Shown here: positions 32,185 to 32,260 of the stretch, piece by piece
Numbering within the stretch: the first letter of the stretch is position 1
How the letters are laid out: every line of letters begins with the position of its first letter
Source: a virus
Taxonomy: Duplodnaviria; Heunggongvirae; Uroviricota; Caudoviricetes
Direction: 5' to 3' (one strand)
DNA: 32,535 bases
IMG/VR virus record: IMGVR_UViG_2541047835_000006
Program-made: the position numbers and the translations under genes
Notes under the pieces: model-generated
What the model saw: only the letters and a program-made list of their open reading frames with translations
The model's database searches: none
What the model was told of the DNA's origin: nothing

Positions 32185-32250
32185 GGTCTCTTCCCATTTT
32201 GACCCAGTTCTTCCCATAAATATCTCACTTATTCCCTGTCATTTATCTCA
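32185..32250. repeat. Phased direct repeats next to putative prophage right end (candidate transposase binding sites)
   Basis: TCTTCCCAT at 32189..32197 and 32209..32217 (20-bp phase), related ATTCCCTGTCAT at 32231..32242; TATCTCA at 32221..32227 and 32244..32250. Confidence 0.35.
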
Positions 32251-32260
32251 AGTCTAATCA

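Follow-up and report, generated by a model that had tools for sequence, protein, structure and literature searches.

A phased TCCC array overlapping putative transposase repeats at one end of a BcepMu-type prophage is a candidate packaging signal

The stretch of DNA analysed here, referred to as the window, comprises the 32,535 nucleotides of the IMG/VR virus record IMGVR_UViG_2541047835_000006 (Caudoviricetes), and the element that it carries is a BcepMu-type transposable prophage inserted in the Escherichia coli gene nudG. The last ~100 base pairs (bp) before position 32260 are best explained as the early-operon, Mor-proximal ('left') end of this prophage. We find it reasonably probable that two overlapping layers of repeats lie at this end, namely two 23-bp repeats, S1 and S2, that would serve as transposase sites, and an array of TCCC motifs that would serve as a packaging (pac) site. 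Judged from comparisons between related sequences, a pac recognition signal is the most likely role of the array, which we treat as a candidate pac throughout. A broader proposal, to which we lean only slightly, is that TCCC read toward the tip and repeated three to five times at exact 10-bp phase inside one end is the conserved pac of all transposable phages with a small terminase of the gp27 family (PF11985), whatever their transposase and from Proteobacteria to Firmicutes. The 23-bp repeats are already known, and the window end is a BcepMu-type end in E. coli. That a phased TCCC array is a conserved mark of the packaging end and is linked to the terminase appears to be undescribed: no GGGA/TCCC pac motif was described in the searchable literature, and older subscription papers may note one.

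We call the prophage end in the window the near end and the opposite end the far end, and count negative positions from the terminal CA (the tip). The features of the near end are as follows.

32160 to 32174, plus strand: palindrome-like motif TGTAAGGTTATTGCA, with the family consensus t-G.AA-N5-TT.CA.
32181 to 32215, plus strand: phased TCCC array, a candidate pac recognition array, defined by the family consensus and found at near ends only.
32215 to 32237, plus strand: second 23-bp repeat, S2, CATAAATATCTCACTTATTCCCT, with its TATC conserved at -40.
32233 to 32236, plus strand: TCCC between S2 and S1, within ATTCCCTGTCAT, 21 bp, or two turns of the helix, beyond the TCCC that starts at 32212.
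32238 to 32260, plus strand: terminal 23-bp repeat, S1, GTCATTTATCTCAAGTCTAATCA, delimited by the tip common to three insertions and by the start of the nudG match.
32261 to 32266, plus strand: AGCGGC, the presumed right copy of a 6-bp target-site duplication, by analogy with the 6-bp duplications of relatives.
32261 to 32535, plus strand: 3' part of the host gene nudG (CTP pyrophosphohydrolase), at 100% identity, with the break point placed by means of the Nissle allele.

A direct check of the sequence bore out the repeat positions and spacings given for this end in the initial annotation. TCTTCCCAT occurs at 32189-32197 and 32209-32217 (spacing 20), TATCTCA at 32221-32227 and 32244-32250 (spacing 23), and ATTCCCTGTCAT at 32231-32242. 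Judged within the window by itself, neither repeat stands out statistically. Exact 9-mers that recur at a distance of 9-30 bp gave 10 k-mer hits in the window, at about 7 places, where Markov simulations averaged 3.8 hits and reached 14 at most; short site patterns were not enriched within the window, and copies of the terminal motifs elsewhere in it, for example in the operator region, were not above chance. The repeats are significant because they are conserved at fixed distances from the tip across the phage family.

The last base of the prophage is 32260 (...ATCA), and nudG resumes at 32261. The remainder of the window, from that base on, is a 100% match to the 3' part of E. coli nudG as found in many E. 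coli genomes, and relative to the intact allele of strain Nissle 1917 the gene is interrupted after nucleotide 133 of 408 (...gatgaaagcc/AGCGGCAGG, with the slash at the break). Three independent insertions of this one phage type, in nudG (the window) and in speE and irp2 (two other E. coli genomes), are identical through ...AAGTCTAATCA at 32260 and diverge from the very next base. The host junction reads ...TAATCA/AGCGGC at 32260/32261, and the element terminates in CA exactly there, where the initial annotation had assumed the junction to be. In the two relatives for which both junctions are available the element has TG...CA termini and 6-bp target duplications, ATTACG in speE (locus L004, 907-913 and 38695-38700) and CCTGAG in irp2 (junctions in L002 and L183). 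Only one flank of the nudG copy (AGCGGC...) lies in the window, the left copy being outside it, and by analogy with these relatives its duplicate is presumed to be AGCGGC. The opposite end of the prophage is also outside the window, which begins in the tail-fibre region and whose position 466 aligns with a point ~3.4 kb short of the relative's far tip; we predict that the other junction reads ...GAAAGCCAGCGGC/TGATGCGCC..., that is, the AGCGGC duplicate and then the inverted far end with two TATCGC sites. Between ~560 and 700 copies of the prophage end seen in the window are present among 5,426 complete E. coli genomes. An octamer, GGCGCTGG, lies 4-7 nucleotides outside the end in the three insertions that were seen first (32268-32275; L001, 1868-1875; L002, 1866-1873). 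It was rejected as a target preference, as its offset varies and nine other close-relative flanks lack it, and was judged a ranking artefact, since ranking by megablast coverage favours flanks that resemble the flank of the query. The boundary of the prophage is fixed to a single base, and a BcepMu-type transposable phage is seen to disrupt nudG.

The TATCTCA pair lies within the two 23-bp repeats. S1 has the core ATTTATCTCAA at 32241-32251, which contains the second TATCTCA, and ends in the CA tip at 32259-32260; S2 has the core AAATATCTCAC at 32218-32228, which contains the first. Their common core consensus is WWWTATCKCRC, at -40 and -17 from the tip. Among 80 loci gathered via the transposase, one genome per species, a TATCTCA-type pair is found just downstream of mor in 54 of the 74 that have a Mor gene. 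A tip-anchored profile was built from 36 non-redundant ends of the BcepMu/B3 transposase family, of which 34 have a TATC beginning at -40 and 30 have one beginning at -17, with the information content peaking at both TATC sites and at the terminal TCA. Read from the inside to the tip, the two ends of this E. coli phage type and the two ends of BcepMu align without gaps:

near end, phage type of the window: CCCATAAATATCTCACTTATTCCCTGTCATTTATCTCAAGTCTAATCA
far end, phage type of the window (from the relative): ATGCCATTTATCGCACAAGATAGAGTGCATTTATCGCGCGGCGCATCA
BcepMu left end: ACCGGAAATATCGCGCGTTCTCCCTTGGAAATATCTCACCTCTCTTCA
BcepMu right end: CCCGAATTTATCGCGCGTCGACGTGCTGAAATATCGCGCCGCGCTTCA

The pair recurs, inverted, at the other end of an E. 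coli relative (98% identical), and likewise in BcepMu, B3, PM105 and phiSHP3. A layout of two sites 23 bp apart is found at each end of BcepMu, of the E. coli relative and of phiSHP3, and B3 and PM105 have the same layout with slightly diverged sites (TATTGC, TTTCGC). Imperfect direct repeats of 23 bp that 'could be recognized' by the transposase have been reported at both ends of phiE255 and BcepMu (PMC2920897), and a BcepMu TnpA-site consensus and TG..CA termini have been referred to (PMC2628397). S1 and S2 are expected, from this sequence conservation, to be sites at which the transposase would bind, like the putative ones already described for BcepMu and phiE255. The initial annotation had taken all of the phased repeats to be sites for multiple transposase protomers, with inverted copies to be sought at the opposite end. 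When the ends of relatives were examined, this held for the TATCTCA pair, which is conserved, stands at a fixed distance from the tip and recurs inverted at the far ends. It failed for TCTTCCCAT, which is found in 0 of 5 far ends and so has no mirror.

The two copies of TCTTCCCAT are the second and fourth elements of the phased array, which consists of a degenerate TCCT (32181-32184), TCCC (32192-32195), ACCC (32202-32205) and TCCC (32212-32215). The 20-bp spacing of TCTTCCCAT noted in the initial annotation is correct, but the TCCC motif itself recurs every 10 bp, with the ACCC falling between the two copies. Across the 36 ends the family consensus has TCCC at -79, -69, -59 and -49, an exact 10-bp phase, and CCC starts at -78, -68, -58 and -48 in 19, 13, 13 and 24 ends, respectively. 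With a strict array defined as at least three of the four TCCC at 10-bp phase, 16 of the 36 ends carry one and none occurs elsewhere (1.5 Mb, both strands); looser WCCC arrays occur in 19 of the 36 ends and nine times elsewhere in 1.5 Mb, and the sole WCCC array in the window starts at 32192. The array is absent from five far ends, those of the E. coli relative, BcepMu, B3, PM105 and phiSHP3. The records of JBD25, KP12, YO107_2, MuM16-2 and B23, which are trimmed or have host DNA at the ends, were left aside. Judged by the inverted copies that the initial annotation called for and that are lacking, TCTTCCCAT is not a symmetric transposase site. A CCC is also found within -30..-24 in 20 of the 36 ends, the region to which the TCCC at 32233-32236 belongs in the window, and this TCCC could be an extra element of the array or part of the S1 site. 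Variant motifs at the identical 10-bp phase were observed as well: TTTCG or TKCCG in the near ends of L054 and L078, CTTCCG three times in that of phiSHP3 (L185), and TTCCG alternating with TCCCG in that of BcepMu (L006).

The same array is present in phage Mu. Read toward the tip, the left end of Mu has TCCC at -66, -56 and -36 and TCCA at -46, in the same orientation and phase and within the spacer between L1 and L2; on the other strand these are GGGA motifs at nucleotides 33-66 of attL. The pac of Mu was reportedly mapped, in work by Groenen and van de Putte in 1985 and by Harel et al. in 1990, to about nucleotides 32-58 of attL, an interval that would overlap these motifs. The right end of Mu has no TCCC/GGGA array. 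We surveyed MuA-type loci, 79 of them from viral contigs and 80 from metagenomes. Every strict GGGA array, of which the viral set has 38 and the metagenomic set 36, lies at the left end, on the strand of the A gene and just inside the terminal site (L1), and no phased GGGA arrays were found elsewhere in these loci (1.2 Mb viral, 2.1 Mb metagenomic). The array-bearing loci include phages with diverged terminal sites and a MuA only 44-54% identical to that of Mu. The left end of the Faecalibacterium phage FP_Mushu, which infects a Firmicute, has four GGGA at exact 10-bp phase. This end (L184, 1-110) starts TGTG and has GGGA at 30, 40, 50 and 60, with further copies near 80 and 102, so that the GGGA/TCCC motif spans phyla.

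The protein family that the array-bearing phages have in common is the gp27 small terminase, and not a transposase family or a type of end site. The corresponding gene of the window is the following.

18456 to 19004, minus strand: small terminase of the Mu gp27 family (PF11985 Phage_Mu_Gp27, full length, E = 1e-55), the presumed reader of the TCCC array.

The product of this gene and Mu gp27 both match PF11985 over their full length (E = 1e-55 and 1e-53); they are 23% identical and have in common an N-terminal LP..VR / S.S...RY motif. A hidden Markov model (HMM) search detected gp27-type terminases in 61 of the 80 BcepMu/B3-type loci and in 40 metagenomic MuA-type loci. An objection drawn from tblastn, that in many loci an array stands without a detectable terminase, was weakened by this search, since the HMM finds gp27-type terminases in most such loci. 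D3112 and RcapMu have a MuA-type transposase, a DUF1804 protein in the small-terminase position and no array. The array thus follows the terminase family over the transposase family, accompanying gp27 in rve-type, MuA-type and Firmicute phages. Its positions, its conservation, its restriction to one end and its co-occurrence with this terminase family are observed directly.

The array is also at one end only, the near end, which is where packaging starts in this family, while far ends and the right end of Mu are without it. That packaging starts at the Mor-proximal end is taken from the literature on BcepMu and phiE255, PM105 and Mu, not from the window phage (PMC2920897, PMC4777764, PMC2837660). 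In Mu, packaging begins at attL, and the host DNA taken along on the left amounts to 50-150 bp (PMC2837660, PMC5977238); in PM105 the host DNA at the right end measures 600 bp to 2 kb (PMC4777764). In the mechanism that we propose, the rve-type transposase would bind S1 and S2, and perhaps the motif at 32160-32174, and bring this end together with the inverted sites of the far one; it would cleave after CA, and insertion would yield the 6-bp target duplication. The TCCC motifs, lying on one face of the DNA in the longer spacer of the near end (32181-32215, with 32233-32236), would act as pac. An oligomeric small terminase of the gp27 family would read them, each subunit contacting one TCCC through its N-terminal helix-turn-helix, and the terminase-bound end would become the start of headful packaging, with the cut made in host DNA just outside and the head filled toward the far end.

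Several points weigh against assigning the array to packaging. Only 16-19 of the 36 BcepMu/B3-type ends pass the array test, with TTCCG or TTTCG as variants in some. Among BcepMu/B3 phages the array goes with the transposase just as it does with the terminase, so that this group alone cannot tell the two apart, and the negative controls are two phage lineages only, D3112 and RcapMu. A strict array is missing from about 11 MuA-type loci that have gp27 and sufficient upstream DNA, though three contain GGRA variants. The proposal also asks that terminases at 23-27% identity keep one 4-bp specificity, which is plausible. The assignments of proteins to DNA motifs are all ones that we infer from correlation and analogy. 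Among the MuA-type loci, gp27 is found without phased GGGA within 3 kb of the A gene in L189, L200 and L107, whose MuA is 93-94% identical to that of Mu, and in L213, L218, L223, L243, L252, L255 and L259. These array-less loci may be truncated prophages, may have variant motifs or may be real exceptions.

An unlikely alternative is the one put forward in the initial annotation, that all of the phased repeats, TCCC and TATC alike, bind several transposase protomers, with the TCCC array providing end-specific accessory or half sites comparable to the unequal left and right layouts of Mu or Tn7. Asymmetric ends are normal in Mu-type elements, and the array of the BcepMu/B3 group is conserved as far as the transposase is, down to 52-54% identity. 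TCCC also directly precedes the TATC cores (TCCC-N5-TATC at S2 and TCCC-N7-TATC at S1), so that a bipartite site is conceivable. Yet the far ends have no inverted TCCC copies, and the identical motif, in the same phase and orientation, accompanies a MuA-type transposase and unrelated end sites in other phages, whereas the transposase of the window has no MuA domains; D3112 and RcapMu, conversely, have MuA-type transposases and no array. Because it is unmirrored and present with an unrelated MuA-type transposase, the TCCC array is unlikely to be a transposase-protomer array.

A further account, which we regard as distinctly improbable, is that the array is a docking or bending element, bound by another protein or consisting of intrinsically anisotropic DNA, that shapes the left end during transpososome assembly and has no part in packaging. 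HU acts in the L1-L2 spacer of Mu, where the Mu array lies. The 10-bp phase places the motifs on one helical face, as is typical of wrapped or bent DNA, and the array occupies the near-end spacer, which is 18-19 bp longer. The motif is strand-specific, however, being always TCCC toward the tip and never GGGA, which passive bending would not need. The array is also absent from D3112 and RcapMu, whose transposases are of the MuA type, and it correlates with the terminase family. That the repeats resemble one another by chance, in a terminal stretch that is AT-rich and non-coding, has next to no probability, for while the short-range 9-mer repeats of the window are only mildly above chance and its short patterns are not enriched, the comparative sequence data, with positional conservation across 36 ends and an essentially zero background in >4.8 Mb scanned, have already refuted it.

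Apart from the TATC pair and the array, the palindrome-like motif at 32160-32174 is conserved. A motif of the TGTAAGGTTATTGCA type starts at -100 in 28 of the 36 near ends, while four of the five far ends have it at -82/-81, and the spacer of the near end, 18-19 bp longer than that of the far end, carries the TCCC array. Its presence at both ends makes a link with transposition probable. The right half of the motif looks like a degenerate TATC core, and the motif is a candidate for a third transposase site or for the site of an accessory protein. A reading of 32160-32174 as an IHF-type site was dropped, since the CAA/TTR spacing, judged by eye, does not fit.

The assignment of the element to the BcepMu type draws on its genes as well as on its end. 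Those of the early operon that bear on this are listed here.

24946 to 26715, plus strand: DDE transposase (rve by Pfam) of the BcepMu/B3 family, the presumed reader of S1 and S2.
26687 to 27892, plus strand: AAA+ transposition partner, ExeA/MuB-like (Pfam AAA_22 and AAA_16).
31709 to 32098, plus strand: Mor-family activator (Pfam Mor, E = 1e-42), the final gene of the outward early operon.

The late genes are transcribed leftward and the early operon rightward, outward toward the end at 32260, in the order helix-turn-helix protein, DUF3102 protein, transposase, AAA+ partner, Gam and other genes, followed by gp16 and Mor. An early region inverted relative to Mu is a published hallmark of the BcepMu and B3 groups (PMC3091646, PMC5977238), and the gene layout of the window matches BcepMu and B3 in this respect. 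By Pfam, rve is the sole domain of the transposase, and MuA domains are absent. Escherichia phage PhiKM, the nearest phage record, which is classified as Bcepmuvirus, has a transposase 98% identical to it; identity is 69% with BcepMu gp09 and 57% with the B3 transposase A. In the E. coli relative the homologue of the AAA+ partner is annotated as an ExeA family protein, and a Mor gene is in the equivalent position in BcepMu, B3 and phiSHP3. The DUF3102 protein (24034-24942) is encoded directly upstream of the transposase, as is BcepMu gp10, and is possibly a DNA-binding accessory of transposition.

Between the late and early operons, 21400-23700 is low in G+C content (0.45-0.49, vs ~0.57 elsewhere), has divergent small open reading frames and is presumably a repressor and operator region with accessory genes. 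The speE relative aligns with the window at 81.9% over 21468-22303 and has no alignment over 22304-23463. Toward the far end the E. coli relative encodes a Gin-like invertase (recombinase gene at L004, 38044-38616), and its tail-fibre genes are flanked by 229-nucleotide inverted repeats that are 91% complementary (L004, 36358-36586 and 37752-37980). This invertible host-range segment resembles that of Mu; BcepMu has been reported to lack an invertible segment (PMC2628397). Just past the stop codon of mor, at 32106-32154, there is a 16-nucleotide inverted repeat, AATCAGGCTGGCGCGA / TCGGGCCGGTCTGATT (81% complementary), followed by TTTTC, which is a possible terminator of the early operon, although a simple terminator scan made no call; the TT.CA that comes after it is conserved in the BcepMu/B3 family. 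Scans of 31900-32400 gave no terminator call and a single weak promoter-like match (32151-32178), at the chance rate, and an Rfam search of 31600-32535 returned no match.

Taken together, the analysis separates two signals that look alike, transposition sites that are mirrored at both ends and a phased array that is one-ended. If the array is pac, it would tie the packaging signal of Mu-like phages, so far poorly defined, to a specific sequence that can be mutated. It would also serve as a simple marker by which the end where packaging starts and the orientation of transposable prophages can be recognized computationally, and as a handle with which to build or disable packaging and transduction vectors of the mini-Mu type.

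The closest known system is BcepMu (Ronning et al. 2010, PMC2920897), with which the window phage shares two repeats 23 bp apart and TG...CA termini, the inversion between the ends being seen in relatives of the window phage. The two also have homologous rve transposases (69%), an AAA+ partner and an early operon inverted relative to Mu, and the BcepMu ends align base for base with the window end. They differ in host, which is E. coli here, and in the inner repeat, which is TATCTCA(C/A) here vs TATCGCGC in most BcepMu copies. The 6-bp length of the target duplication was measured in E. coli relatives of the window phage, not taken from BcepMu.

The likeness to Mu is one of organization. Mu attL (L1, a spacer with pac, L2 and L3) and the window end are both asymmetric left ends at which headful packaging starts, both have one or more terminal transposase sites adjoining the CA/TG tip, and a GGGA/TCCC array with the same orientation and a 10-bp phase lies just inside each of them; the small terminases of the two phages belong to one Pfam family (PF11985). 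The longer spacer of the window end parallels the arrangement of L1, spacer and L2/L3 in Mu, as against the contiguous R1-R3. Unlike that of Mu, the transposase of the window is unrelated at the domain level, with no MuA domains. Target duplications in Mu are 5 bp (PMC7350765), vs 6 bp in the phage family of the window. The array follows a single site (L1) in Mu and two sites in the window phage, and the gene adjoining the end is the repressor in Mu and mor in the window phage. The WWWTATCKCRC sites are unlike the TGTATTGATTCAC... of Mu and its relatives, which places them outside the MuA-type att family. The window end works like a Mu end, but it lies outside that family.

In the layout of its sites the window end also recalls the transposon Tn552. 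Each end of Tn552 reportedly carries two tandem transposase-binding motifs of ~23 bp, in work by Rowland et al. in 1995. The window has two tandem 23-bp sites, and the BcepMu record annotates its transposase as 'Tn552/IS1604 rve transposase'. Tn552 is, however, a plain transposon without packaging, is likened here by layout, and is not known to have a TCCC array. For the array itself the parallels are the R sites of lambda cosB and the pac boxes of SPP1, which are short repeated motifs in helical phase near the start of packaging, their reader being an oligomeric small terminase that binds DNA through N-terminal domains. The window phage differs from both in its terminase family and in its motif. 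Unlike those of lambda and SPP1, moreover, its site must act on an integrated, non-excised genome, with the cut falling in the flanking host DNA.

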